From positions 150,001 through 182,000 of the forward strand of contig JACQJH010000001.1 of NCBI GenBank assembly GCA_016205145.1: a stretch of DNA of 32,000 nt. The letters are read 5' to 3'. The notes under the pieces are model-generated. The model worked only from the letters and a program-made list of their open reading frames with translations, ran no database searches and was not told the DNA's origin. Every line of letters starts with the position of its first letter. Positions within the stretch are counted from its first letter, which is position 1. Both the position numbers and the translations under genes were made by a program. The DNA is from Candidatus Iainarchaeum sp. (GTDB lineage Archaea; Iainarchaeota; Iainarchaeia; Iainarchaeales; JACQJH01). Below, one piece after another: positions 4,571 through 32,000 of this stretch.

Positions 4571-5296
4571 TCAGAACCTTCTGCGCGGGGTGAATTCCCT
4601 TCTGTCGCCGAATCTCCTGAACGGCCTTCTGCCCTGCTGCCTTTCTTCGTCTTTTTCCTCGCCTTCCTTGACAATGTATTCGAATTCCACGAGCTTTTCG
4701 TCAAACTTGGCCTCGTCTTTGAGCGCGCCGCTTTTTTTGAGCAGCTCTTTTGCCAGCAGCCAGTATACGAGGGCAAGGCTCTGCCTTCCCTTGTTGTTTA
4801 CCGGTATTACCATGTCAATGCCCCTGAGCGAATTGTTGGTTGATGCGAGCGCAACCACCGGGATTTTCACTACTCCGGCTTCCTTTATGGCCTGCTCGTC
4901 CGCGTCTGGTTCGGTGCAGAGCAAAACTTTGGGTTCGAAGAACTGCGTCGATTCCGGGTTTGAGAATGTTCCCGGCACGAACCTGCCCACGAACGGCCTT
5001 GCCCCGACAACTTCGCAGAATTTTTTTGCCGGCGTCTGGCCGTAAACCTTTCTTGAAACGACCGCGATTTTCGACGGTTCGAATCCTGAAAGGAATTCTG
5101 CAGCCATGCGGATCCTCTGGTCGATTGTTGCAATGTCCAGAACGTTCAGGCCGTCCTTTCTTTTCTTGAAAATGTACCTTTTCATGTCGCCTGACGTGAA
5201 TTTTGTGCCGATGTGGCAGCCTGTCTTCAGGTATTTTTCGCTCGGCACCAGCGTTTTTTCGCCTGCCGTGGTTTCCGTTGTAGTTTCTTCAGCCAT
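4571..5296 (-). CDS. rps2: 30S ribosomal protein uS2
   Basis: Trimmed to ATG 5296 (MAEETTT...KYLKTGCHIGTKF...LNVLDIATIDQRIRMAA...VVSRKVYGQ...PGTFSNP...LLCTEPDADEQAIKEA..IPVVALASTNNSL). The upstream 111 codons are read-through across rpoN. Confidence 0.95.
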   Translation of the reverse strand: MAEETTTETTAGEKTLVPSEKYLKTGCHIGTKFTSGDMKRYIFKKRKDGLNVLDIATIDQRIRMAAEFLSGFEPSKIAVVSRKVYGQTPAKKFCEVVGARPFVGRFVPGTFSNPESTQFFEPKVLLCTEPDADEQAIKEAGVVKIPVVALASTNNSLRGIDMVIPVNNKGRQSLALVYWLLAKELLKKSGALKDEAKFDEKLVEFEYIVKEGEEKDEERQQGRRPFRRFGDRREFTPRRRF

Positions 5297-6781: not shown

Positions 6782-6844
6782 TTTTCAACACCGGTTTTCA
6801 TTTCATTTTTACTGTCGCTTACTGCTGCGCCTCTCCCGTTTTTT

Positions 6845-6963
6845 TGCAGGAGGGCGGATTCGAACCGCCGAAGGCACTAAGCCAGCAGATTTCCCAAAAA
6901 AACTTTTTTCCAAAACATTTTTTTTCTTAAGTCTGCCCCCGTTGACCGCTTGGGTACTCCTGC
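6845..6963 (-). tRNA. tRNA-Leu (anticodon UAA), class II, with about 35-nt intron after position 37; no encoded CCA
   Basis: Hand-folded on the minus strand. Acceptor GCAGGAG/CTCCTGC (7 bp, discriminator A); D arm CCC-AAGCGGTCAAC-GGG; anticodon stem GCAGA/TCTGC with loop CTTAAG|intron|A; variable arm GGC-TTAGT-GCC; T arm GGCGG-TTCGAAT-CCGCC. Intron at about 6891-6925, A/T-rich. Confidence 0.9.
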
Positions 6964-7039
6964 ACAGGGGCTTGCGCCCCTTGTAAACCCCCTTCGAGGC
7001 ATTGCTGCGGCAACGCCTCAAATTCGGTTTTTTTCTCGG

Positions 7040-9577: not shown

Positions 9578-9798
9578 CAAACCTTCAAAAGTTTAACTAT
9601 GTCCTCATGGGGCGCGTTTTCCTTTATCGCTATTTTCTGGGATGTCGGAAAGAGATGCCGCGGATTGCATTTCGCCCTTTTCACCTGCGGGCCGTCGACC
9701 AGGACAAAGTCTTTCTCCCACGAAACCACGACGGCCTTTTTGCCGGATTCGCGGCCCTTGGTTTTAATGCAAACCGTGCCAATTTCGAGCGTTGTCAT
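9577..9798 (-). CDS. rpl14e: 50S ribosomal protein eL14 (L14e)
   Basis: MTTLEIGTVCIKTKGRESGKKAVVVSWEKDFVLVDGPQVKRAKCNPRHLFPT is the KOW-type L14e pattern. Confidence 0.9.
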   Translation of the reverse strand: MTTLEIGTVCIKTKGRESGKKAVVVSWEKDFVLVDGPQVKRAKCNPRHLFPTSQKIAIKENAPHEDIVKLLKV

Positions 9799-9829
9799 TT
9801 TTTTTCACCAGAACAAACACAATCCAATT

Positions 9830-10177: not shown

Positions 10178-10664
10178 TTTTTCCGCCCCTGAAATGTTCA
10201 AATGCTGTGAACGCGAGGTTTATTGCAGCGCTGAATATCAGCGACAGCAAAACATACCATCCAATCCAGCTTGTCTGCTCGTAAAACACTATGCTCCAGT
10301 TGCTCCCGAACCATGGCACGGGCACGGGCAAATCGATTATTGCCTTGCCGTACAACGGAGGGATGACAAAAACGAAAACTGCCAATGTGACGGGAAGGTA
10401 GAAAAGCAGGTACTTGTTCATGGCCTGCATGCTTTCAAGCGAGATTTCCATCATTTCCTTCTGGACCGCCTCAAGCTCCTTCATTGCGTTCTTGTCATCG
10501 GTTTTCTTCATTAACTCCTTTGCCTTTGCCTGCTTTTCCTTGAGCTTTTTCTGGCTTGCCTTCTGCTTTTTTGTTATGCCCATTTTTTCCTGGAGCGCCC
10601 TCGACCCGATTGCGAGCAGCGCGCTTATCACGGCAATGTCTGCCGCCGGGTTAATGAATGCCAT
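10161..10664 (-). CDS. DUF106 / EMC3-TMCO1-like membrane protein (archaeal Oxa1/YidC-superfamily candidate)
   Basis: TM1, then a Lys/Glu-rich coiled-coil (KKQKASQKKLKEKQAKAKELMKK...LEAVQKEMMEISLESMQAM), then 2 TM helices. Sits at the conserved position downstream of secY. Confidence 0.7.
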   Translation of the reverse strand: MAFINPAADIAVISALLAIGSRALQEKMGITKKQKASQKKLKEKQAKAKELMKKTDDKNAMKELEAVQKEMMEISLESMQAMNKYLLFYLPVTLAVFVFVIPPLYGKAIIDLPVPVPWFGSNWSIVFYEQTSWIGWYVLLSLIFSAAINLAFTAFEHFRGGKNAEKK

Positions 10665-10680
10665 TTTAAAACCCCGACCT

Positions 10681-10756
10681 GATTGAATTGCCGGAATTCA
10701 ATCCCAGAAAATAGCGCAAGCAACCATTATTTGTCATGTAAATGTTATAAAAAGCT
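10681..10756 (-). promoter_or_regulatory. Candidate promoter (TTTTTATAA box) plus 9-bp leader hairpin upstream of the DUF106 gene
   Basis: Minus strand reads AAAAGCTTTTTATAACA (10742-10758). Perfect hairpin gattgaatt-gccgg-aattcaatc (10681-10703) lies 17 nt upstream of ATG 10664. Confidence 0.35.
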
Positions 10757-10823
10757 TTTGACGCGCCGGGCACACTTGCCTCTGCCGCCTCCTGAAATGG
10801 CCTTGGAACCTTTGCCATTGTGC

Positions 10824-10935
10824 CTGTTTTCACTTGAAAAACCTCTCCGAGGCAGGGGACTCCGTCCCCTCGCGCGCCCCTTGAGCCTTTAATGCTGTTT
10901 CTGTTTTTCACTTGAAAAACCTCTTCAGCAGGGGG
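10824..10935 (-). repeat. Family-1 intergenic insert downstream of secY, flanked by a duplicated secY 3' end
   Basis: ttttcacttgaaaaacctct occurs at 10827-10846 and 10905-10924, with extended similarity over 10824-10857 and 10901-10935. Between them lie hairpin AGGGGAC-TCC-GTCCCCT (10854-10870) and a core that is near-identical to 24355-24386. Confidence 0.75.
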
Positions 10936-14070: not shown

Positions 14071-14643
14071 TCAAGAGCCCAGAATCTTCTGTTTTGCTTC
14101 GGCAAACTTTTTTGAAATGCTTTTCACGTCAAAGCCGCTTTGCGCATATTTTGAAAACATTTTGCCGAACTCTTCCCCGCCGAGGCTTTTCGCGTAAGCT
14201 TCTATTGTCCTGCCGTCGATTCTTTCCTGCGGCGGGAACGCCTTCTCGTCGGCGGGCAATTCAACGCCCGCGTCAATCAGCCCTTTGAGCGCACCAAACA
14301 CAGTCGAGCCGTGCACTGGCGTGGCGAACCCTATGTCGAGATTGCCTTTTTTCACGCCTTTCTCCTTCGCCCTTTTTCCGCAGAGCAAACCGGTCAGGTA
14401 AGCCGTCGGCGTATTGTTTGTCGGATACCAGCCGAATTCTTTCAGCTGCTTTGATTCGGCCTGCGCCAAAACCGAGTCGTCTTTTCCGTTGAACGCGATT
14501 GCCTGCACAAGGATCCTGGTGTTTGTTTTCCTTACAACTATCCTCGGCGTCTTGCTTTTGAGCATTCCAAGCCTTTTGGCATAGTTTGTCTTCTTCTCGT
14601 GCCTTCTCTTGAATTGCGTTTCATAAGTCGAAGTTTTAGTCAT
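14071..14643 (-). CDS. rpl18: 50S ribosomal protein uL18
   Basis: FKRRHEKKTNYAKRLGMLKSKTPRIVVRKTNTRILVQAIAFN...NTPTAYLTGLLCGKRAKEKGVKKGNLDIG. Confidence 0.95.
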   Translation of the reverse strand: MTKTSTYETQFKRRHEKKTNYAKRLGMLKSKTPRIVVRKTNTRILVQAIAFNGKDDSVLAQAESKQLKEFGWYPTNNTPTAYLTGLLCGKRAKEKGVKKGNLDIGFATPVHGSTVFGALKGLIDAGVELPADEKAFPPQERIDGRTIEAYAKSLGGEEFGKMFSKYAQSGFDVKSISKKFAEAKQKILGS

Positions 14644-16223: not shown

Positions 16224-16616
16224 TCAGTAAACGTATGCCAGCAGCCTTCCGCCGAGGCCCTGAGTTTTCGCGTCCATGTGCGTCAAAACGCCTTTCGGGG
16301 TCGTAACGATTATTATGCCCACATCCTTTGCCGGCAGGTACCGTTTCTCGAACTTTTCGAACTCGTCCTTCTTGACCGCGTACCTCGGCTTTATCGCCTT
16401 GCACTCGTTGATTTTTCCGCGAAGCTTGATTTTCAGCCTGTCGCCTTTCCTGTCCTCCAAAAAATCAAAGCCCTCGATGTAGCCCTTTTCCTGCATCACC
16501 CTGAATATTTCCTTCAAAAGCTTTGACCCAGGCTTGAACTCGCATTCCTTTTTTGAAGCCTGATCGCTGTTCTTGACTGCAACCAGTGCATCTGCTATCG
16601 GGTCAATCATTGTCAT
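16224..16616 (-). CDS. rps8: 30S ribosomal protein uS8
   Basis: Trimmed to ATG 16616 (MTMIDPIADALVAVKNSDQASKKECEF.PGSKLLKEIFRVMQEKGYIEGF...GIIIVTTPKGVLTHMDAKTQGLGGRLLAYVY). Confidence 0.95.
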   Translation of the reverse strand: MTMIDPIADALVAVKNSDQASKKECEFKPGSKLLKEIFRVMQEKGYIEGFDFLEDRKGDRLKIKLRGKINECKAIKPRYAVKKDEFEKFEKRYLPAKDVGIIIVTTPKGVLTHMDAKTQGLGGRLLAYVY

Positions 16617-16630
16617 GGCTTTCCACCCCT

Positions 16631-16813
16631 TCAACTGTACTTTGAGAACCCCATCTTCTCCGCGACTTCCTTGAAGCAGCGCCTGCAAATGTTCAAACCA
16701 TACTTCCTTATCAGGCCGGCCCTGACGCCGCACATCTTGCACTTCCTCGCCTTCTTCTCGGCCTTCAAGTCCTTCTTCTGCCTTTCATTGCTGCCTGAGT
16801 TCATTGCGCTCAT
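16631..16813 (-). CDS. rps14: 30S ribosomal protein uS14 (zinc-binding type)
   Basis: ...[40 protein letters not shown]. Confidence 0.93.
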
Positions 16814-16934
16814 TGCACTTCAACCCCGAGCCGATTTCGTCCGGCTGGTTCGACGACGGGTATCTCGCTTTGCTCGATACCCATCTGCGCCGTACTGTAA
16901 AATTCAATTTTTTTCATTGCACGTCCACCCCGAA
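16811..16934 (-). repeat. Family-2 intergenic insert splitting the L5-stop/S14-start junction, flanked by a 20-nt duplication
   Basis: cattgcacttcaaccccgag (16811-16830, carries the S14 ATG) versus cattgcacgtccaccccgaa (16915-16934, carries the L5 TGA): 17/20 identical. The insert carries hairpin agccg-atttcgtc-cggct (16829-16846) and blocks shared with 22950-23048. Confidence 0.75.
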
Positions 16935-17426
16935 TTTTTCCCTCAAAAACGCCATCGCTTCCTCTTTCGAGACAAGCTGCCTTTTTCCGACAACGGCTTT
17001 TTTCCTTTTTCTCCTTTTGACCCTGTAACCGGGCTTTTCCAGTGAAACCAAAACATCCAGGCCGCGGATTCCGAGTTTCGGGTCGTACTTTGCCTGGGGC
17101 AGGTCAATGTATTCGCTTATGCCGAAACCGAAGTTGCCGGCGCGGTCAAAGCTTTTTGCCATTATCTTGTTGTCCTTTGCCTGGAATGCCTGCTTCAGGA
17201 ATTCCTGCGCCTTTTTGCCCCTCAGCGTAACCTTTGTCCCTATTGGAAGGCCCGGCTTCAGGTTCCATGTGGGCTGCTTGACCTTTGCAAGCGTCTGCAC
17301 TGACTTGCTGCCGGTGATTTTCTCAATTATCTGCTGCGCCTTCTTGAGCTCTTCGCCAGACTCGCCGACACCCATGTTGACCGTAACGGCGAATACCCTT
17401 ACATTGCGCATTGCGTTTTCCTGCAT
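16914..17426 (-). CDS. rpl5: 50S ribosomal protein uL5
   Basis: MQENAMRNVRVFAVTVNMGVGESGEELKKA...PGLPIGTKVTLRGKKAQEFL...GNFGFGISEYIDLP..KYDPKLGIRGLDVLVSLEKPGYRV. ATG 17426 shares one nt with the S4e stop. Confidence 0.95.
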   Translation of the reverse strand: MQENAMRNVRVFAVTVNMGVGESGEELKKAQQIIEKITGSKSVQTLAKVKQPTWNLKPGLPIGTKVTLRGKKAQEFLKQAFQAKDNKIMAKSFDRAGNFGFGISEYIDLPQAKYDPKLGIRGLDVLVSLEKPGYRVKRRKRKKAVVGKRQLVSKEEAMAFLREKFGVDVQ

Positions 17427-18145
17427 CAAATCCCCTCTAATTCAGGCCGGGTTTCACCGACAACGAAGATGTTCGCCTCGTTTGTCAGGAATTCCTCTCC
17501 TTCGGACGGCTTGACTGCGATGAGCTTTCTCCTTGTCATCGTTCCCTCTGAAACCTTTGTGATTATGCCCTTGAGCCCCACTTTTTTTCCGCCGATTATG
17601 AATGCTATGTTGCCTTCCTTCATGGCAAGGCTGCCTGAAACCTTCTGGCCCGGCACTTCAACAATGATGGTGTCCCCGACCCTGACATCCTTATTTATTC
17701 CGCGGAAATTCCTGCCGTCGTTTGTCGTTATCTGCTGCTCTTTTCCTTTTATGGTGAACTTCCTTACAACCTTGCACAGCTTTTTGCCCTTTTCCTTGTC
17801 GCTGATTTCTTTTGGCAGGAGCTGGCCCGAATCATTGAGAATAATCCTGTAATTCTTTTTCTGGCCCTTGAGCGAGACAACGTCGAACAATCCGACCGGA
17901 TGCCTTTTGTCCGTCACGGCCTTTCCGTCAACCTCGACTTTGCCCGCAAAAATTATCTGCTGGGCCTCGGACGCGTTCCTGGCTATTCCAAGAAGGTCCC
18001 TTGCGACAAAAAGCAGGGGCACGGAATTCTTGTTGTGCGGTCCCGCTTCCGCCTTGACCGTCCACAGATTTTTTTTCCTGTGGATTTTCCTCGCCTTGCT
18101 CACGCTGAGGGTTTTCTGCTGCCGTCTTTCGCCTTTTTTCGCCAT
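17426..18145 (-). CDS. rps4e: 30S ribosomal protein eS4 (S4e)
   Basis: Trimmed to ATG 18145 (MAKKGERRQQKTLSVSKARKIHRKKNLWTVKAEAGPHNKNSVPLLFVARDLLGIARNASEAQQIIFAGKVEVDGKAVTDKRHPVGLFDVVSL). Confidence 0.95.
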   Translation of the reverse strand: MAKKGERRQQKTLSVSKARKIHRKKNLWTVKAEAGPHNKNSVPLLFVARDLLGIARNASEAQQIIFAGKVEVDGKAVTDKRHPVGLFDVVSLKGQKKNYRIILNDSGQLLPKEISDKEKGKKLCKVVRKFTIKGKEQQITTNDGRNFRGINKDVRVGDTIIVEVPGQKVSGSLAMKEGNIAFIIGGKKVGLKGIITKVSEGTMTRRKLIAVKPSEGEEFLTNEANIFVVGETRPELEGI

Positions 18146-18536: not shown

Positions 18537-18603
18537 AAAACATCAACGCTTTCTTTTCCCGCTTCCTTCCGGTTCATTCCTTCATTTCGCATTTCTTTTT
18601 TTT

Positions 18604-22949: not shown

Positions 22950-23048
22950 CGTTTCACCACGGCGATTTCGTCCGCCGAGTCCGACGCACTATGCTCCTTT
23001 CAGTCGCATAGCGCTGGCTCGCGTTGCTCGCATTCTATAACCATCTTT
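22950..23048 (-). repeat. Family-2 intergenic insert between L23 and L2
   Basis: Shares with 16831-16913 the hairpin loop atttcgtc (stem cggcg/cgccg, 22960-22977), the block ctcgcgttgctcg (23018-23030, versus ctcgctttgctcg 16864-16876) and ataaccatct (versus atacccatct). Also has its own hairpin gcactatgc...gcatagcgc (22986-23013). Confidence 0.7.
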
Positions 23049-24307: not shown

Positions 24308-24432
24308 AAACAATCACGTTGAAATATCCATTATCACTTTGAAATGTACTCCACGCAGGGGGCTCCGTCCCCTCGCACGCCCCTGAAACGCGGACTGTCC
24401 TCGCACGCCCCTGAACTTGCCTTCATCTAACA
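24308..24432 (-). repeat. Family-1 intergenic insert splitting the L3-stop/L4-start junction
   Basis: Tandem 17-mer cctcgcacgcccctgaa (24371-24387, 24399-24415). Hairpin AGGGGGC-TCC-GTCCCCT (24357-24373). The flanking junction tgccttcat..atcactttgaaatgta is present twice (24299-24348 and 24418-24447). Confidence 0.8.
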
Positions 24433-25488
24433 TCACTTTGAAATGTAATCCACCTGGCTTATGTCCGGCCCTTTCAGGACAACTTTGCGGATGTTCTTGC
24501 GCAGGCCGATGACCCTTTTTGCCGGACCCGGAATGCTGCCCGCCAAAAGCAAAACAGTGTTTTTCGCCAGGCCGTAATTTGAAAAGCCGGCGCCCGGATT
24601 GACTTCTTCCGGCTTTGCAATCTTCAAAATCTTCTTGTTGTATTCCGTGCGCGTGTGATAGCCCATCTGGCCCGCCCTTGCAACAGTCCACATGACTGTC
24701 GAGGGATTCCAAGGCGAAATCGCGCCGACTGTCCTGGTCTTTTTCGCTTTCGGCCTCGCGGTCTTTATGCCGAACCTTTTGACAACGCCCTGAATGCCCT
24801 TTCCCTTGGTGACAGCCTTAACGTCAACGAATTCGGGCGCGGCAAAAACGTCTTCCGCCGAAATTTCCTTTCCAAGCTTTTCCATTGCAAACGCGGTCTG
24901 CTGTCCGACATTGCCTGAAAGCTTGACTTCCGAGACTTCCGGTTTCTTCTTGCCGATGCCCGTCAGATAGGGTTGCGTATGAACGAGCAAACAAACTTCC
25001 AAAATCCTTGCTTTTTCCTTTTCCAAATCGCCGACTGTTTTCGGCTGTTTCACGGTTTCCGCTTTTGCCTTTTTTCCCTCTTTTGCTTCAACGCCTTTTT
25101 TGCCTTCCTTTTTCGCCCCGAAAGAACCGATTTTTCTCGCCAAATGCTTTTCCTGCCTTTCAGCCAAAACGTCAAACAACGCCCTCGAACCATAGCCCTT
25201 GTCGTCTTTCGCGTACGCCCTGATGCCGAAAACCTTCAATGGCGGGGCTTCCAGCACAGTAACAGCTGATGCGACTTCCTGCCCGACGGTCGTGCCCTTA
25301 GGGTGGGTGTCCTTTCCAAGAACGTGCGCCATGCCTGCCTTGTAAGCCAAAAAGTTCAATGGCTTCGAGGCCTCGCCTTCCTTTGCCTGGGGAGCCTTGA
25401 ACGAGGTGAAAGTAGGCGTTTCCTTAAGCGCCCGCTTTCTCGGATAATAAGCCAGGCTTCCGGACCTGGACTTGTGCTTCTTTGTCAT
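24433..25488 (-). CDS. rpl3: 50S ribosomal protein uL3 (first gene of the cluster), with a KE-rich internal insertion
   Basis: MTKKHKSRSGSLAYYPRKRA...FLAYKAGMAHV...VTKGKGIQGVVKRFG...ISPWNPSTVMWTVARAGQMGYHTRTEYNKKIL. Confidence 0.96.
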   Translation of the reverse strand: MTKKHKSRSGSLAYYPRKRALKETPTFTSFKAPQAKEGEASKPLNFLAYKAGMAHVLGKDTHPKGTTVGQEVASAVTVLEAPPLKVFGIRAYAKDDKGYGSRALFDVLAERQEKHLARKIGSFGAKKEGKKGVEAKEGKKAKAETVKQPKTVGDLEKEKARILEVCLLVHTQPYLTGIGKKKPEVSEVKLSGNVGQQTAFAMEKLGKEISAEDVFAAPEFVDVKAVTKGKGIQGVVKRFGIKTARPKAKKTRTVGAISPWNPSTVMWTVARAGQMGYHTRTEYNKKILKIAKPEEVNPGAGFSNYGLAKNTVLLLAGSIPGPAKRVIGLRKNIRKVVLKGPDISQVDYISK

Positions 25489-25722: not shown

Positions 25723-25974
25723 CTAATCGTAAACGTTCCGCCTGTGCCCGGCTTTTGTGACCAGAATCTGCTTTTTGCCGAAGTCCAAATCGGCAATAAC
25801 CCGATAGTCTCCGACCCGCAGCTTGTAGTCCTGCCTTCCCTGCAACCGTTCAAAAAACAGTTTTGGCTCTTCTTTGGCTTGCCGGAGTTTTGAAAAAATG
25901 CGCCTTTTTGTTTCCTGCTCAAGCCCGTTCAGTTCCCTGAGGGCTTTTTTGTCAAAAATCAGTTCGAAAGCCAT
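25723..25974 (-). CDS. RelE/ParE-family type II toxin
   Basis: 83 aa: MAFELIFDKKALRELNGLEQETKRRIFSKLRQ...LQGRQDYKLRVGDYRVIADLDFGKKQILVTKAGHRRNVYD, the typical RelE/ParE pattern. Directly abuts the upstream antitoxin (TGAATG). Confidence 0.85.
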   Translation of the reverse strand: MAFELIFDKKALRELNGLEQETKRRIFSKLRQAKEEPKLFFERLQGRQDYKLRVGDYRVIADLDFGKKQILVTKAGHRRNVYD

Positions 25975-26223
25975 TCAGAGTCCCAGAATCTTTCTGGCTT
26001 CCTCTTCTGAATAGTACTGGCCTGCTTTGATTCTTTTTCTCGCTGCCTCGATTTCAAGGGCGGTTTTCCTGCTCAATTTCGGGTTGTTTTTCGCGGTTTT
26101 GCCTATGAAAACAAGCTTTCGGATAATCTCGTCGAAAGTTTCGCTTTCGTATTCGCGGAACGCTTCAAGGTTTGACTTTGTTTCGGTTTTCAGTTTTATG
26201 GTTGTTATAGTGCTCATGCGCAT
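25975..26223 (-). CDS. Type II antitoxin (archaeal DUF217/VapB-like N-terminus plus RelB-like C-terminus)
   Basis: 82 aa: TTIKLKTETKSNLEAFREYESETFDEIIRKLV...EIEAARKRIKAGQYYSEEEARKILGL. Sits immediately 5' of the RelE-like gene. Confidence 0.7.
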   Translation of the reverse strand: MRMSTITTIKLKTETKSNLEAFREYESETFDEIIRKLVFIGKTAKNNPKLSRKTALEIEAARKRIKAGQYYSEEEARKILGL

Positions 26224-26257: not shown

Positions 26258-29200
26258 TTATCCTATGCAGGTTTGCCCCGCCACGAGCGTTGCCTCGAAA
26301 TCGTCCAGGCTTGTTCCGCCCGAGCCCTGCTTGGAATAGACTGTCAGCGGGTTCCAGAAGAAAACGCTTTTGTCGCCGGAATCCGTGAGGCAGACTTGCC
26401 CGTCTTTGACCAATCCGAAAACGTCGTTCAGTTCGCTTACCGTGTCATTGTTCGACTTGCTGTTCTTTTGCATTCTGCCCAATCCGCCCAAATGGACTGA
26501 CGTGCTGTGCTCGCCGTCCATTGTGTTGAATGAAAGCTTTCCTTCCGCCGGCGAAAGCGATTTGAGCACGAAGTTTGACTGTGCCGGCGCGTAAAGGATT
26601 GTTTTCAGGAACACGTCTCCCGTTTTCACTGCATTCAGCCAGTCGATGGCGTAAGCGTTTTGCGCTCCGCTTACAGGGTCTGCGGTCTGTCCGCGCCTGT
26701 CTGGCCTGAGCCTGAAAGCGTTTGTCGAATAATCGCCTGTGAAGTCCCTGCAAGCCGACAATCCCGACCAGTAGCCTAAAACCGAGCCCACGACTTTCGG
26801 AGAATCGTTTTCGAACAGCTGGTAGTATGCCGAGAACCTGTCGTTCTTCTGCCCGGCAACGTTCATTTTCATCACGACTGGGGTTGCGTAATTCGGCGAG
26901 AACGTCAAAAGCTTTTCATTTCCCGTGCCCTGCCTTGCGATTGAAAGCAGTGCTCCCCTTGTGTCTGCCGCGCCGTTGATTTTCGCGGCATCGGTTTCAA
27001 TTTTTGTCGCAAGCGTCTGCAATGCGTTCGAGTTTTCAACGGGCTTTGCCTCGACGATGTTCTGTCCGGCTTCGGTTGAAATTTTGACCGGCGCGCCCTG
27101 GTTCAGGTAATTGAGGCCATAGCCCTGCCTGCCGTTGTCAGTGCCGATTCCTATCTGTCCATCGAAGGGCAGGTAATAGAACATTGACGCGGGGTTCGGG
27201 TAATCGGCATAGCTGAATTTGACTGTTGCCTGCGCTTTAGGCTTTCCATCGGAGCCGAAGAATTTCCAGTCGTTTCCGAAAACAACGCGCAATTCGGCGT
27301 CGTAAACGCCGGCATCAGGCAGGACATCCGAGTCGGGCGTGTACCTGAAGTCAAGCTTTGACGTGTCGTTGAAATAATCCGCAAACCTGCCCGTGGCATC
27401 CGAGTCAAAGTAGCTTGGCGTGTTGTAGAATGTCTTGTTCGAATAAAACTGCGCGAAGTCCTTCTGGAAGTCATCCGAATAACCGTCCCTTATCAAATTG
27501 ACGCGCGGTCTCAGAATCCTGTGCAGTGTTTCCTTGTCTGGCACGTCTTTTGTCCAGTGCGGTTCTCCTTGGTCCTGGCTGACGAGCTGGCCGAAGAAGG
27601 GCAGTTCCCTGTCATAGAATGCTTCAAGGCCAGTAACTCCCGGTGCAATGTCGAAAGTCGTATTGTTCAGCCAGCACTGCGAAGCGTTTTCCCGCGCAAT
27701 GTTCCAGAAAATAACTGAAATTGCCTTTGTTGCATACTTTTGCGCTTCCGTGCCTGAAAGGCCCTGGATGAACGCGGAGTCAAAGCCTGCAACAACCGAG
27801 TACGGGTCAATGTTTTTTGGCAGCTCTCCTGCATCGAAAACAAATTCTTTCGTCGTGCCCCTGGCAATGCTTGATTCCTGGCCAGCAAGGCTTTTCGTGA
27901 AACTGTTCTGGGGCAGGCCGTTCGCCGACAACACAACCTTTGCCGTCCTGTCCGCGTCGGAGAGGTTTTCGACCTGCACCTTGAAAGTGAAATGGTTTTC
28001 ATTCGCCGCGTCCTTTTCCAGCAGGATTTTCTTGAAGTAAACTTTTCCGCTTTGCGATTCGCTTTGGTTTCCGTTGCTGGTGTTCTGCTCCGCATACGCT
28101 TTTTTCAAGGCGTATTCCGGGTCGGTCGGGCAGGCAAACGAGGGGTTTGCGTTCAGGAAATCGCGCAGGAACTGCATTCTTTGCGTCAAGGCAATCGAGA
28201 ACTGCGTTGCGTCGCAGTAAATGCCATCCGGATTGTCTGCATCGCAGCTCCAAGCATTGATGTTGTTTGTTCCATCAGTTGACCATTTCCAGTTCAAATT
28301 GATTTTCGGCAAGGCTTTTTCTCCGGTTACGCCCCTTCCCTCGCATGCCGCGCTTGCAACGTCCGCGCGAATCGGCTCCCATTCCTGCACTTCTTTTGTC
28401 TGAACGCGGATGTGGAATTTTTGCGAGTAATGCCTTTCGCTTGTGCCGGAGCATGCGCCTTCATCCGGGCCATTGCCGATGTTGAACTGGTCGACAGTGC
28501 CGCTTGAACAAATGACATCATAGCTTTGGTCGCCGCTTCCAGTCCTTCCTTTACTGCTGTCATGCAATGCGTCGCCGTTGATGTGCTCGGTTGCCCCGAC
28601 TTCGAGTATGGCGAATTTTGGCGTGTCAGCCTGGTAGCCGTCATTCGAGAAAACGATTTCCTGCATTTCAACGTCTCCTCCGCGGCCTTCCTCAAGGTTC
28701 CATTTCGGCCTGATTTTGCCGTCCAGGCCGCTGACCTTGAGCTGGTCGTCGGTTGAATCCGGCGGAACCATTTTGTTGCCGTCTTTCGTCACAACCGTCA
28801 TGCCGGAAATGTTCAGGACATAATCGTTCATGGGGTTGACAGCCGAAACGTCATGGCAGGAATACATCTGGTCGGCAAGCCAGTTGACAACCATGTTAGT
28901 AATCCAACTCGCAACAAGCGAAATGCCGAAGCTTGCGGCCAGATTGCCTAGCTGTGAAAGCTGGCCTTGGGCGGAATGGAGTTTGGCTTGGGTTTGTTCT
29001 AATTTTCCATATAGGTCTCCCGATGCTTCTTGTCCCGTGCCACCAATGGCATCTATTTCGCCCCTAATGCTTGCCACTTTTGCGCTTAACGTGGCGATTT
29101 TCACAAGCGACCCCAGCATCGGCAGCGCGGCGTTCAGGAACTTGTAGGTCGAGTATGCGACGTACATCAGCGTCGCGGTCTTGATGTATTGTTTCACGTT

Positions 29201-32000
29201 GTCCCTTTCGCTGTTTGCAACGTTTTCCCACACGCAGCCGTCCGCTTTCACGTGCACGACTTCCTGGTAGGCCGAGTTCACAACCGTTGTCTTGTCCTGC
29301 AGGCTTGGGAAAACCTTGAAGTCATATCTCAGCAGTTCGAAATAGTCTTTGCCTCCGAACGGCTCGCTTGCTTTCGGCCTGTCCGGCGGGCTCGTTACAA
29401 GCACGTCGTCCTTGCGCAGTTTTCTCGGAGCGTTTCCTGCAAGGTTGCCGTAAACGTTTATGCCGTAAATGCCTGAAATGTCGGAATTGTTTGTCACTTT
29501 GATTGTTTTGGATTTCTGGCTTGGCGTCAAAAGGAAATCCTCTTCGTCAAGCGACAACCCCCCTTCCGTTCCCCCCGCGCAGTGGCTGTCGTTATAGCAG
29601 AGTTTTATGCGCACGTCCTTGTTGAGCGAAGGGCATTTTTCCGTTGAAATTGAAAGTTCGCCTTCAGGGTCGAAGAAAACCGTGTCGGGGTTGTCCTGCA
29701 GTTCAAGTTTTCCGTCTTCAGGCGTGTAGGCTATGCACGTTGAAAGGTCTATTATGCTGATTGTGCCTTCAACGTCCCTCACTCCCTGCACTTCGTCGAA
29801 TCCTGATTGTTTTTTCAGCAGGCCTTTCACTTCAATCTTTACCGCAGTCGTCTCGTTTTGCGCGCCGGGCTTGGCTGTAAAGACAAAGCTTGCAACCAGG
29901 CTTTCCCCGGAATTGATTTTCGCCTGCACGTCAACCGGCACATCAGGCGTCAGGGCGTATGTGCCGATCGGCGTGCCGTCGATTGTTTTGAGTGAAACCG
30001 AAACGTCGCCCTGGTATGGCGCGGGGTGGTAAGTAAACTGCAGTCCGTCAAGCGCTATCGGCGCGCCTTCAAACTGGCAGTTGTTTGAAATGTTTGAAAT
30101 GTGCGGCCCGGTTTTTCCGGCATCGGTTGAATCGTTCCATTCGAAGTTGTCGACTGAAACGCATTTGTCGGCAGGAGTTTCCCCGAAGCCGATTGCAACG
30201 TTCAATGGAATGAACACGTCATAGGTTTTTGCGAACGCCTGGTTCTGGAACGTGAGCCAGACCCACCCGTCAAGGCTTTCCTGCCTGTCGACAATGCCGG
30301 CTGAAACGAGCTGTGTCTTGATTATGTCCGCGAGCTCTTTTGCCTGCAAGGGCTTTATTTCCAGGCCGTTAGTTTTTGTCTGCAGGAACGAAAGCATTGC
30401 AGTATAATCCAGTACTCCGAAAAACCTTGAGCTTTTTTCCTTGTAGTCCGATTTCGTCAGCTTCAGTGTTTCGCCGATGTGGCTTGTCGCAGTGAGAATC
30501 GTGGAAATAGTTTCGTTGGTTTTTGCCCGCGTGTCAAGCCTTGACTGCAGTTTTTCCGGTTCGAATGAAAGTATCTGGCCTGAAACAGTCAGAGCGAGCG
30601 GCTTGTCGAGCCAGTAGCCGATTTTTTCGGCTCCGAAAACAATTTGCGTCAATGGCGAGCTTGCCGGAACATGCACAATAACTTCGCCGTTGTCGCTGCT
30701 CATGCAGTTGTTCCCTGAAACGCATGCGAGCCAGCTTTCGCTTGCATCGGCAAGAATTTTTTTTGCCTTGACAAGCACGCCGGAAAGCGGTTTTCCCGAA
30801 CTGTCTTTGACTGTCACAAGAATGTCTTTCTGTTCGAATGCGTTGACCGCCGAGGGTTCGACTGCCAACGCCATGTCTTCCTTGCTTGCCGTCTTGAATT
30901 CTATTTTTTTCCTGTAAACCGTCTGTCCGCCTGAAACAATGCGCGCTTCAAGGCCTGAGCTTTCAAGCTTTTTGCCTTCAATCCACAGCTTTGCGAGAAC
31001 GCTTTTGCCCTTTGAAAAGCCGCCAAGCGGAATTGCCGGCGACTTGAATGCGTTGAAATTGGCGTTCGCGTTTTCATGCGAGTCCGCGTCAAGCAGCGAG
31101 TATTTGCGGATGAGAATGCTTTCGTTGTCCGCACCATGCGAATCGACGCTTGCAATTATGAGCTGTATGCCGTTGAATTGCGCGTCGGAATTGTTTTTGA
31201 TTACAAAGTTCAGTAGGTATGGGCCGAAGACCGTCAGAGCGTACGGCTTGTCGTCGAGGAAAAGGTTTGACTGCTCGTCCAAAACATCCTCGCCTGCATA
31301 GCAGAAGTCCTGGCCGCATGTTACGGGCACGCCTTCCAGGAATTCGTTGATTTCAAACGTCTGCGCGAACAATTCCTTTTTCGCCGCGGTTTCACGCGCG
31401 CTTCCCAACCCGGCATCGGCCGGCATCCTGCTGTAAGTGTCTCCGCTGGCGGTCCAGGCCCGGTAGTGCATTGGCAATGGTGTCATCGGCGCAGTGCTTT
31501 TCTTCACCACGACCTCGAACGCCGCGTAAACCACTTCCGGTTCGGTTGTTGAAAATTTCGCATCCGCCCACTTGCCGACGCTTGCAGAGCTTTCAAGCAG
31601 GTTTTCAGCGTCGCTTCCAAGCGGCGGATTGAATGCGGAACCTTTCTCTATCTTGGCATTGCCGGCATCTATTTCGCCGATGTAAAGCGCGTCCCCTGAA
31701 ACAGTGTTCGTGTCGCCGGTCCTGAAATGTATGCCTGCCTGCTGGACAGCTGAGGGCAGTTTGAATTTGAAGAGTGCGAGATATCGTTTTCCTGATTCCA
31801 TTGCCTGGGCTTCGGAATAGTTTTCAAGCATTCCTTCGAACGAAACGCTTGGCTGGGAAATGCTGCCTTGCAATGGCAGTTCGGCCTTGAATTCCGCGAG
31901 AGTGTCGGGCCACAGCATTTTCGGGATTGTCTGTGCCTTCACGTGGTTGGGCGAGGTTATGACTGCAAACACTTTTCTTCCGGCCCTGATTTTCTGGGAA
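26258..32000 (-). CDS. Giant Cys-rich putative surface protein (more than 1913 aa; N-terminus outside window)
   Basis: Single uninterrupted frame from TAA 26258-26260 to the window edge; codons stay open beyond the ORF-track GTG at 31972. Many spaced Cys pairs and beta-rich segments, including a prealbumin/CarboxypepD_reg-like stretch (ILVTVKDSSGKPLSGVLVKA...SDNGEVIVHVP). Central hydrophobic hairpin at about 28870-29180. No catalytic motif recognised. Confidence 0.85.
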   Translation of the reverse strand, partial: SQKIRAGRKVFAVITSPNHVKAQTIPKMLWPDTLAEFKAELPLQGSISQPSVSFEGMLENYSEAQAMESGKRYLALFKFKLPSAVQQAGIHFRTGDTNTVSGDALYIGEIDAGNAKIEKGSAFNPPLGSDAENLLESSASVGKWADAKFSTTEPEVVYAAFEVVVKKSTAPMTPLPMHYRAWTASGDTYSRMPADAGLGSARETAAKKELFAQTFEINEFLEGVPVTCGQDFCYAGEDVLDEQSNLFLDDKPYALTVFGPYLLNFVIKNNSDAQFNGIQLIIASVDSHGADNESILIRKYSLLDADSHENANANFNAFKSPAIPLGGFSKGKSVLAKLWIEGKKLESSGLEARIVSGGQTVYRKKIEFKTASKEDMALAVEPSAVNAFEQKDILVTVKDSSGKPLSGVLVKAKKILADASESWLACVSGNNCMSSDNGEVIVHVPASSPLTQIVFGAEKIGYWLDKPLALTVSGQILSFEPEKLQSRLDTRAKTNETISTILTATSHIGETLKLTKSDYKEKSSRFFGVLDYTAMLSFLQTKTNGLEIKPLQAKELADIIKTQLVSAGIVDRQESLDGWVWLTFQNQAFAKTYDVFIPLNVAIGFGETPADKCVSVDNFEWNDSTDAGKTGPHISNISNNCQFEGAPIALDGLQFTYHPAPYQGDVSVSLKTIDGTPIGTYALTPDVPVDVQAKINSGESLVASFVFTAKPGAQNETTAVKIEVKGLLKKQSGFDEVQGVRDVEGTISIIDLSTCIAYTPEDGKLELQDNPDTVFFDPEGELSISTEKCPSLNKDVRIKLCYNDSHCAGGTEGGLSLDEEDFLLTPSQKSKTIKVTNNSDISGIYGINVYGNLAGNAPRKLRKDDVLVTSPPDRPKASEPFGGKDYFELLRYDFKVFPSLQDKTTVVNSAYQEVVHVKADGCVWENVANSERDNVKQYIKTATLMYVAYSTYKFLNAALPMLGSLVKIATLSAKVASIRGEIDAIGGTGQEASGDLYGKLEQTQAKLHSAQGQLSQLGNLAASFGISLVASWITNMVVNWLADQMYSCHDVSAVNPMNDYVLNISGMTVVTKDGNKMVPPDSTDDQLKVSGLDGKIRPKWNLEEGRGGDVEMQEIVFSNDGYQADTPKFAILEVGATEHINGDALHDSSKGRTGSGDQSYDVICSSGTVDQFNIGNGPDEGACSGTSERHYSQKFHIRVQTKEVQEWEPIRADVASAACEGRGVTGEKALPKINLNWKWSTDGTNNINAWSCDADNPDGIYCDATQFSIALTQRMQFLRDFLNANPSFACPTDPEYALKKAYAEQNTSNGNQSESQSGKVYFKKILLEKDAANENHFTFKVQVENLSDADRTAKVVLSANGLPQNSFTKSLAGQESSIARGTTKEFVFDAGELPKNIDPYSVVAGFDSAFIQGLSGTEAQKYATKAISVIFWNIARENASQCWLNNTTFDIAPGVTGLEAFYDRELPFFGQLVSQDQGEPHWTKDVPDKETLHRILRPRVNLIRDGYSDDFQKDFAQFYSNKTFYNTPSYFDSDATGRFADYFNDTSKLDFRYTPDSDVLPDAGVYDAELRVVFGNDWKFFGSDGKPKAQATVKFSYADYPNPASMFYYLPFDGQIGIGTDNGRQGYGLNYLNQGAPVKISTEAGQNIVEAKPVENSNALQTLATKIETDAAKINGAADTRGALLSIARQGTGNEKLLTFSPNYATPVVMKMNVAGQKNDRFSAYYQLFENDSPKVVGSVLGYWSGLSACRDFTGDYSTNAFRLRPDRRGQTADPVSGAQNAYAIDWLNAVKTGDVFLKTILYAPAQSNFVLKSLSPAEGKLSFNTMDGEHSTSVHLGGLGRMQKNSKSNNDTVSELNDVFGLVKDGQVCLTDSGDKSVFFWNPLTVYSKQGSGGTSLDDFEATLVAGQTCIG

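Follow-up and report, generated by a model that had tools for sequence, protein, structure and literature searches.

The 100-nt spacer between the ribosomal protein genes L5 and S14 described here most probably holds a small (about 60–140 nt) non-coding and non-autonomous mobile element that inserted long ago and has since decayed slightly. In all likelihood the element belongs to a superfamily that has spread through the Iainarchaeota (DPANN archaea). Insertion of a mobile element is favoured because perfect flanking duplications surround related inserts and the corresponding sites are empty in sister genomes. Within limited searches the family is undescribed, as no matching report was found in the literature and the combination of features fits no family known to us or found there. 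The MITE-like C/D small RNAs of Pyrobaculum, described in one paper, are different from the elements reported here.

The duplicated L5/S14 junction

The window, meaning the whole 32,000-nt stretch that was analysed, carries a minus-strand archaeal ribosomal protein operon that runs from L3 to L5 and on from S14 to L15 and SecY, followed by an S13-S4-S11-RpoD operon. With an L5 protein 64–65% identical to those of Candidatus Iainarchaeum genome bins, the source appears to be a DPANN archaeon of Iainarchaeota type that lacks a close sequenced relative. Within the operon, most junctions overlap or have gaps of a few bases. Four are long: L3/L4 (125 nt), L23/L2 (99 nt), L14/L24 (67 nt), and L5/S14, where 100 nt of the minus strand separate the L5 stop from the S14 start. 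The L5/S14 junction comprises the following features.

16914-17429, minus strand: ribosomal protein L5 gene (open reading frame list and translation; Pfam Ribosomal_L5 on an identical Logan gene)
16914-16934, minus strand: left (L5-side) junction copy, TTCGGGGTGGACGTGCAATGA, 18/21 identical to 16810-16830
16831-16913, minus strand: inserted element, copy A, 83 nt, missing from L5/S14 in 52 of 54 relatives and matching covariance model R1
16886-16913, minus strand: A/T-rich 5' module of copy A, AAAAAATTGAATTTTACAGTACGGCGCA, with comparable A/T-rich 5' ends elsewhere
16855-16885, minus strand: hairpin 1 of copy A (RNAfold; covariation over 12 copies)
16830-16845, minus strand: hairpin 2 of copy A (fold, model R1, covariation)
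16810-16830, minus strand: right (S14-side) junction copy, CTCGGGGTTGAAGTGCAATGA, with a relic L5 3' end (LGVEVQ*)
16810-16917, minus strand: relay ORF of 35 codons, from an ATG overlapping the L5 stop to a TGA overlapping the S14 start
16631-16813, minus strand: ribosomal protein S14 gene, 60 aa, zinc-finger type (open reading frame list; Pfam Ribosomal_S14)

The initial annotation proposed that an insert of about 84 nt had split an ancestral L5/S14 overlap and left a flanking duplication of two 20-mers with 17/20 identity. The insert is confirmed at 83 nt, as is the 17/20 match, and adding the shared A of the TGA extends the repeats to 21-mers with 18/21 identity. An ATGA stop/start overlap is present in each copy. 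The left copy contains an SD-like GGGGTG, the L5 stop (TGA, 16914-16916, within ATGA), and a relic start codon; the right copy provides S14 with its SD and start codon. Collapsing the two copies restores an ATGA overlap, as proposed, of the type seen at several other junctions in this operon. Pairs matching at 18/20 or better with a spacing of 45–330 nt occur four times in the 32 kb of the window against a chance expectation, by our own estimate, of about 0.05 per window, and structured inserts at gene ends lie between the members of three of these pairs.

Comparison with relatives supports the ancestral overlap. Related operons were retrieved from 80 genomes and 24 junctions were measured in each, with L5/S14 counts based on the 54 Iainarchaeota-like loci that have both genes. 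L5 and S14 share an ATGA overlap in 30 of these 54 relatives and are separated by a gap of at most 32 nt in 52, and a homologous 100-nt spacer occurs in none. Together with the relic L5 end these overlaps bear out the view that the spacer is secondary. The only other comparable L5/S14 spacer is one of 58 nt (L002, 1861-1918) that holds a near-perfect palindrome, AACTCTCTCGCA...TGCGAGAGAGTT, which is an unrelated, independent insertion at the same junction.

The two junction copies derive from duplication rather than from convergence under SD or coding constraint. The L5 genes of relatives end in ...TTCGGGGTTGAAGT...ATGA or ...TTCGGGGTTGAAGTnnnATGA, coding FGVEV, and the S14-side copy in the window reads ...GGGGTTGAAGTGCAATGA (LGVEVQ*). 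This copy retains L5-type codons (GVEVQ*) which an SD and a start codon do not need, and so represents a duplicated remnant of the L5 3' end.

Two further inserts in the window, of a different family (family 1), have the same duplicated-junction architecture, with repeat identities of 20/20 at the SecY 3' end and 21/22 at L3/L4. This agrees with what had been read from the window originally.

10847-10904, minus strand: family-1 insert just past the SecY stop, with a perfect 20-nt repeat, AGAGGTTTTTCAAGTGAAAA, at 10905-10924 and 10827-10846
24333-24453, minus strand: family-1 insert in the L3/L4 spacer, with a 22-nt repeat, GTGGAKTACATTTCAAAGTGAT, at 24432-24453 and 24333-24354

The L3/L4 spacer is also carried by Logan contig L130. 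Matching the window proteins exactly yielded no more of this genome than short Logan contigs covering this locus. A third, degenerate copy of the L3/L4 junction, ATATTTCAACGTGATTGTTTATGAAGGC (24308-24332, minus strand), bears the real L4 start, and because it follows the second copy it suggests two successive events at this junction. The L14/L24 spacer (18537-18603, minus strand) is 67 nt here vs. 0–20 nt in most relatives; it is purine-rich and unstructured (fold z = +0.27), and neither a duplication nor a family match was found in it.

Other parts of the window hold separate features. Between RpoD and L18e (6844-6964, minus strand) there is a class II tRNA gene interrupted by a 35-nt intron. 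It is missed by default ARAGORN and called as tRNA-Ser(TGA) when introns are allowed, and by eye its anticodon loop could alternatively read UAA (Leu). Directly after the RpoD stop, the segment 6966-7039 (minus strand) reads GAAAAAAACCGAATTTGAG..GCCGCAG, similar to the 5' module of copy A, and includes a GNRA hairpin (AGGGGC-GCAA-GCCCCT) ending 2 nt ahead of the tRNA 5' end. This segment may be another element or a tRNA leader. Further along, a 1904-aa ORF with no Pfam match (26258-31972, minus strand) adjoins a small ParE-like toxin/antitoxin pair (25723-26223).

Structure and distribution of the element

Copy A has a predicted minimum free energy of -42.7 kcal/mol (RNAfold, z = -3.6), and 0 of 200 shuffles fold as well. 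Hairpin 1 has a 10-bp stem followed by a tandem G.A/A.G internal loop (CGAG/CGAG), and beyond this loop a 2-bp stem capped by an AAA loop. Hairpin 2 has a 5-bp stem (GCCGG/UCGGC) closed by the hexaloop ACGAAA and directly adjoins the right junction copy. A/T-rich 5' ends like that of copy A are found in other copies, for example ATTTGAATATTTATAC in L049d and TTTAATATTTTAAG in L049a. A second copy in the window has the same modules with different stem sequences, and its junction duplication is degenerate.

22950-23048, minus strand: copy B, in the L23/L2 spacer (R1 seed, 70.5 bits)
23017-23031, minus strand: copy B hairpin 0
22986-23014, minus strand: copy B hairpin 1
22961-22976, minus strand: copy B hairpin 2

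The claim that the L5/S14 insert and the L23/L2 spacer share a second repeat family was confirmed with a covariance model, R1. As a MAFFT alignment of ten copies was inconsistent with the structure, R1 was seeded instead from three gapless copies, the L23/L2 copy and two from other genomes, with copy A left out. The model comprises hairpin 1 with its tandem G.A pairs, the linker UCGNACY, and hairpin 2 with an NCGAAA loop. R1 matches 16830-16883 (minus strand) at 35 bits with an E-value of 1.6e-5, the top non-seed match in 1.12 Mb, and with filters off on 93 kb the match to copy A has an E-value of 1.3e-6. Among the 12 best R1 matches pairing holds in 96.5% of cells, and both sides have changed in 12 of 14 pairs, although this alignment was fitted to the model and is thus biased in favour of pairing. 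These values were reached by 0 of 500 shuffles, and slid controls were 29–53% paired. The stem of hairpin 2 illustrates the covariation, being GGCGG/UCGCC in copy B, AACAG/CUGUU in L006, and CACAG/CUGUG in L049. On the sense strand G.U wobbles outnumber A.C by 8 to 1, which indicates that the sense strand is the one under structural selection.

Neither the window nor six element-rich loci gave an Rfam match at gathering score, and nothing relevant appeared at E <= 10 in 16600-17100. Known RNA motifs were considered by eye and rejected. The CUGAUGA...GAAA core of a hammerhead is lacking, as are the 3-nt bulge beside the tandem G.A expected of a K-turn and the ACA box of an H/ACA RNA, and neither a C/D-box RNA nor a bulge-helix-bulge splice motif fits.

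A scan for exact direct repeats in other genomes identified inserts whose perfect flanking duplications include a stop, alone or as part of a stop/start junction.

L001: perfect flanking duplication of 20 nt
L047: perfect flanking duplication of 20 nt
L049: four events, each with a perfect duplication of 19–20 nt, two of them in tandem at one site
L038: perfect flanking duplication of 18 nt
L006 (Ca. Iainarchaeum andersonii single-cell genome): one perfect duplication of 29 nt and one imperfect duplication of about 32 nt

Overall the duplications span 15–32 nt with a mode of 20 nt and are not uniform; seven cases were scored at exactly 20 nt, of which the two tandem L049 cases are possibly 19 nt. 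L049 contains four different cores, each within a perfect 19–20-nt duplication, in line with the earlier suggestion of one mechanism that moves several cargos. In this genome the L22/S3, S4e/L5, and S5/L30 junctions are filled. Its close relatives L005 and L055 have a single copy at these junctions, and this single copy is the segment duplicated in L049. Across the 24 junctions and 80 genomes the expansions are sporadic and differ between genomes. Element-rich genomes are L003, L006, L008, L012, L019, L023, L038, L045, and L047-L049, and element-free ones are L005, L055, L017, and L024-L035. Some apparent spacers at L4/L23, L6/L32e, and L18/S5 are N-terminal protein extensions and were set aside.

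Copy number reaches five in L049, four to five in L019, and four in L006. Copies within a genome are 97–99% identical in L006 (three copies at 98–99%) and L012 (two), and four copies in L019 are also near-identical. All model hits in ribosomal protein loci are co-oriented with the operon. No terminal inverted repeats were seen by eye in L001, L047, L049a-d, the L019 consensus, or the SecY insert of the window, and no target motif is shared beyond the SD-like and stop/start content. The 3' hairpin adjoins the repeat in all clean cases. In one family, "GGAAGGGAAT...", the 5' end is variable and begins 0, 17, or 35 nt past the left repeat in L001, L047, and L048.

The four L019 copies (2316-2407, 5147-5246, 10207-10297, and 10739-10854) have nearly identical flanks, AAAATTATTACCG ... 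CACATAAATCGGAGCACCCGTACGAAATCGGGTAG, around hairpin-1 stems that are unrelated yet perfect (TGGCATT, CAGTATC, TGGGATT, and TGGTTTT). This gives the copies a cassette-like look and hints at selection or gene conversion acting on the element.

A metagenome scan with the hairpin-2 pattern returned 46 loci, 45 of which are chance or unrelated matches in GC-rich bacteria and one of which, L086, is informative. Here the module lies in the spacer between 16S and tRNA-Ala of an archaeal rRNA operon, with a hairpin 2 identical to that of copy B, and a second hairpin of similar kind ends exactly at the tRNA 5' end. The element is therefore not confined to ribosomal protein operons. Within positions 1-700 of the same contig there are two occurrences of the hairpin ACGCAG-TTTCGG-CTGCGT, at 172-190 and 494-512. 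Being the reverse complement of a CCGAAA-loop hairpin, it gives weak reverse-oriented matches to the model.

A conserved motif is shared by 14 high-GC bacterial contigs (L084, L085, L087, L089, L090, L093, L097, L103, L107, L109, L115, L116, L119, and L121). The motif, ...ctactcgcacGTCGAACGAGGYCGGACGAAATCGACac, lies about 40 nt upstream of a divergent gene start (GAGGAGG..ATGCGTTTCATGGTTCTGGTCCC, other strand) and is probably an operator or 5' UTR unrelated to the element.

L006 carries a further copy downstream of SecY. The terminal hairpin of this copy is split by a 56-nt mini-insert (14470-14525) with inverted ends, CAACGAAATGGGC...GCCCAATTCGTTG, which is a nested insertion of a different, palindromic element. 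An element-like string, GCGAGCAAAGCGAGCCAAGGCCCTGC, also occurs twice in L006, at 4913-4938 and 9784-9809; the S3 protein contains it in its long C-terminal extension, and the other occurrence lies in the L6/L32e region. Judging from these positions, fragments of the element may be translated within protein tails.

Insertion mechanism and competing explanations

The element starts with an A/T-rich 5' part, continues through one or two hairpins with tandem G.A pairs, and ends in a terminal hairpin of 5–6 bp with an NCGAAA-type hexaloop that directly adjoins the right duplication. Insertion would have involved cutting of the target strands about 20 bp apart, joining of the element, and filling of the gaps. 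Such a staggered cut would have duplicated about 20 bp, including the L5 stop and the S14 start together with the SD-like sequence. Only the sense orientation occurs in operons, which is likely due to selection: in an antisense insert the A-rich 5' part would place a terminator-like oligo-T tract in the operon, and archaeal RNA polymerase terminates at such tracts.

The machinery for such an event is not apparent nearby. Among the window's flanking proteins, Pfam scans turned up neither a transposase or integrase nor Cas1 or a reverse transcriptase, and none was found in the 16-kb loci. The 82 loci searched contain no large element with flanking repeats of 16–45 nt that could be an autonomous partner. 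Viral contigs gave 0 matches to two family cores. The fixed 20-bp stagger speaks for a DNA enzyme that works as a ruler, either an integrase or a transposase. To our knowledge, the combination of a 20-bp stagger, no inverted repeats, and a terminal hairpin fits no archaeal insertion sequence family.

Alternatively, movement may have been RNA-mediated and SINE-like, with co-transcribed element RNA reverse-transcribed at a nicked target and a second nick about 20 nt away giving rise to the duplication. The absence of terminal inverted repeats agrees with this route, as does the precise 3' end, where a conserved terminal hairpin adjoins the duplication while the 5' parts vary (0, 17, or 35 nt in one family). 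Duplication lengths of 15–32 nt, a conserved structure with sense-strand G.U pairs, and the presence of copies in highly transcribed units (ribosomal protein operons and an rRNA spacer) point the same way. However, no reverse transcriptase and no tail or microhomology signature was seen, and seven duplications scored at exactly 20 nt (two perhaps 19) resemble the fixed stagger typical of a DNA transposase or integrase. We know of no SINE-like elements in archaea. RNA-mediated movement is considered rather unlikely, although if true it would be the first of its kind in archaea.

Less likely still is a role of the insert as a small RNA gene in its own right or as a mobile promoter. The A/T-rich 5' part would then act as BRE/TATA, driving either an RNA composed of hairpins 1 and 2 or the gene downstream. 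The 5' parts do look like TATA-like boxes, and a good BRE/TATA-like sequence, GCGAAAAAATTTAAAACC, precedes the module upstream of tRNA-Ala in L086. However, in copy A a start site about 24 nt past TTTACA would land inside hairpin 1, and B-type copies lack the A/T-rich part. This explanation also concerns function rather than origin, and it leaves the duplications unexplained.

A conserved cis-regulatory leader is an improbable source of the spacer. The structure would then be an rRNA mimic bound by a ribosomal protein, exerting feedback on S14/S8 or L2 as in the spc/S10 control of bacteria. The folding of copy A (z = -3.6), the position of two paralogous copies ahead of ribosomal protein genes, the related module in the rRNA operon spacer of L086, and the strong conservation of the constant parts of the L019 copies could all be read in its favour. 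However, the module is not syntenic, as L5 and S14 overlap in 30 of 54 relatives and the module occupies differing junctions in each genome. The perfect duplications and the empty sites in sister genomes indicate insertion, and Rfam holds no match. The lack of synteny and the sister empty sites exclude a regulatory leader as the origin; secondary exaptation of the element as a regulator is still conceivable.

The flanking repeat alone would be enough to suggest that the junction was duplicated locally in tandem and then drifted, or that the spacer grew de novo, with no mobile element in either case. This is very improbable since the flanks are not the source of the interior, which shows sequence and structural homology to copies found at other junctions and in other genomes. 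An assembly artefact, either a chimeric join or a collapsed repeat, has a negligible probability even though repeats can cause misjoins in short-read metagenome assemblies, because two independent Logan assemblies from different runs (SRR12113383 and SRR12113385) are identical to the window over the junction, L5 and S14 are both intact, and the same architecture recurs in many public genomes including the single-cell genome L006.

Tolerance within the operon and relation to known systems

Insertion of a mobile element into an overlapping gene junction would be tolerated through the duplication itself. The left junction copy leaves L5 intact, and S14 takes its SD and start from the right copy. 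The relay ORF opens at the relic start of the left copy, crosses the element, and ends on the S14 start. Ribosomes finishing L5 would then re-initiate twice, first on the relay ORF and then on S14, bridging the 100-nt spacer. As deduced from the reading frames, the relay ORF probably keeps L5 and S14 translationally coupled. This proposal fits the published loss of coupling, as an intergenic distance of about 20 nt nearly abolishes termination-reinitiation in Haloferax and E. coli (PMC10666635; PMC6728339).

Relay ORFs cover 33 of 50 long junction spacers in the data set vs. a fraction of 0.335 in shuffles, with the qualification that copies within one genome are not independent. A fairer base rate is the 54 of 105 sense frames of insert cores that are open, which makes the relay excess weaker. 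Long examples reach 79 codons in L012, 76 in L038, and 60 over the double insert of L049. The idea that the elements are stop-free specifically on the sense strand was rejected, as stop depletion affects both strands and is stronger on the antisense. With a 20-nt duplication, only about four cut positions leave the right copy with both an SD (at about -13) and a start codon, and the observed duplications end 0–3 nt past the start codon. Selection alone can therefore explain these end positions, as well as one site being hit twice. We know of no described arrangement in which a relay runs through an inserted element.

The elements resemble several known systems in part. Like prokaryotic MITEs and intergenic repeats (Correia/NEMIS, ERIC, RUP, and the SM-type MITEs of Sulfolobus) they are small, non-coding, multi-copy, and structured. 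However, MITEs have terminal inverted repeats, duplications of 2–10 bp, and both orientations. The present elements lack inverted termini, duplicate about 20 bp of target, and in operons occur in one orientation only. Of the features that define a MITE, multiple copies and empty sites are present, and inverted repeats and a short fixed duplication are absent. With SINEs and other non-LTR retroposons they share the lack of inverted repeats, asymmetry, and a conserved 3' stem-loop beside the duplication. The likeness may extend to the 5' ends, which vary in one family, and to the long duplications of somewhat variable length, seven of which were nevertheless scored at exactly 20 nt (two possibly 19 nt). 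SINEs, however, are eukaryotic, have A-rich or repeat tails, and depend on a known partner reverse transcriptase, none of which was found here.

Cas1-type integration makes a staggered attack on two strands at a fixed long distance, duplicating the CRISPR repeat or, for casposons, 14–15 bp. These systems differ from the elements here in that casposons are large and carry inverted repeats and cas1, spacers are about 30–40 bp of unrelated sequence, and no Cas1 was seen. IS200/IS605 hairpin elements (PATEs) insert 3' of a fixed tetra- or pentanucleotide with no target duplication, unlike the long duplications observed here. Unusually long direct repeats are shared with the IS1202 family, in which they measure 27–28 bp or 15–17 bp in two subgroups (bioRxiv 10.1101/2022.12.17.520857). 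Members of that family are bacterial, about 1.5 kb long, and encode a transposase between inverted repeats of 24–26 bp, and in this they are unlike the elements here.

With regard to tolerance, Rickettsia palindromic elements are short structured repeats that survive in expressed sequence by staying translatable. Most inserts here are similarly read through by an ORF. The Rickettsia elements lie inside genes with no reported long duplications, whereas the present inserts are found at stop/start junctions. There is also a likeness to ATGA termination-reinitiation coupling (PMC6728339; PMC10666635), as both junction copies keep ATGA and the relay ORF amounts to two short-range steps.

It is possible, as a tentative reading, that these elements represent an unrecognised class of archaeal mobile element. 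Such a class would be defined by structure, lack inverted repeats, and have a ruler-like stagger of about 20 bp. It would be moved by an undiscovered integrase or a SINE-like RNA route, and would colonise the zero-length junctions of streamlined DPANN genomes by means of the regenerated stop, SD, and start and the relay ORF.

The L5/S14 insertion means that selfish DNA can enter the overlapping stop/start junctions of a ribosomal protein operon in a minimal genome without breaking expression. With about 20 bp duplicated, both gene ends are re-formed, and ribosomes can cross the insert on a read-through mini-ORF. This provides a concrete, testable rule for translational coupling over long spacers. 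Such inserts inflate apparent intergenic regions and spawn spurious small ORFs in DPANN genome bins, and they are usable as presence/absence markers in strain tracking.
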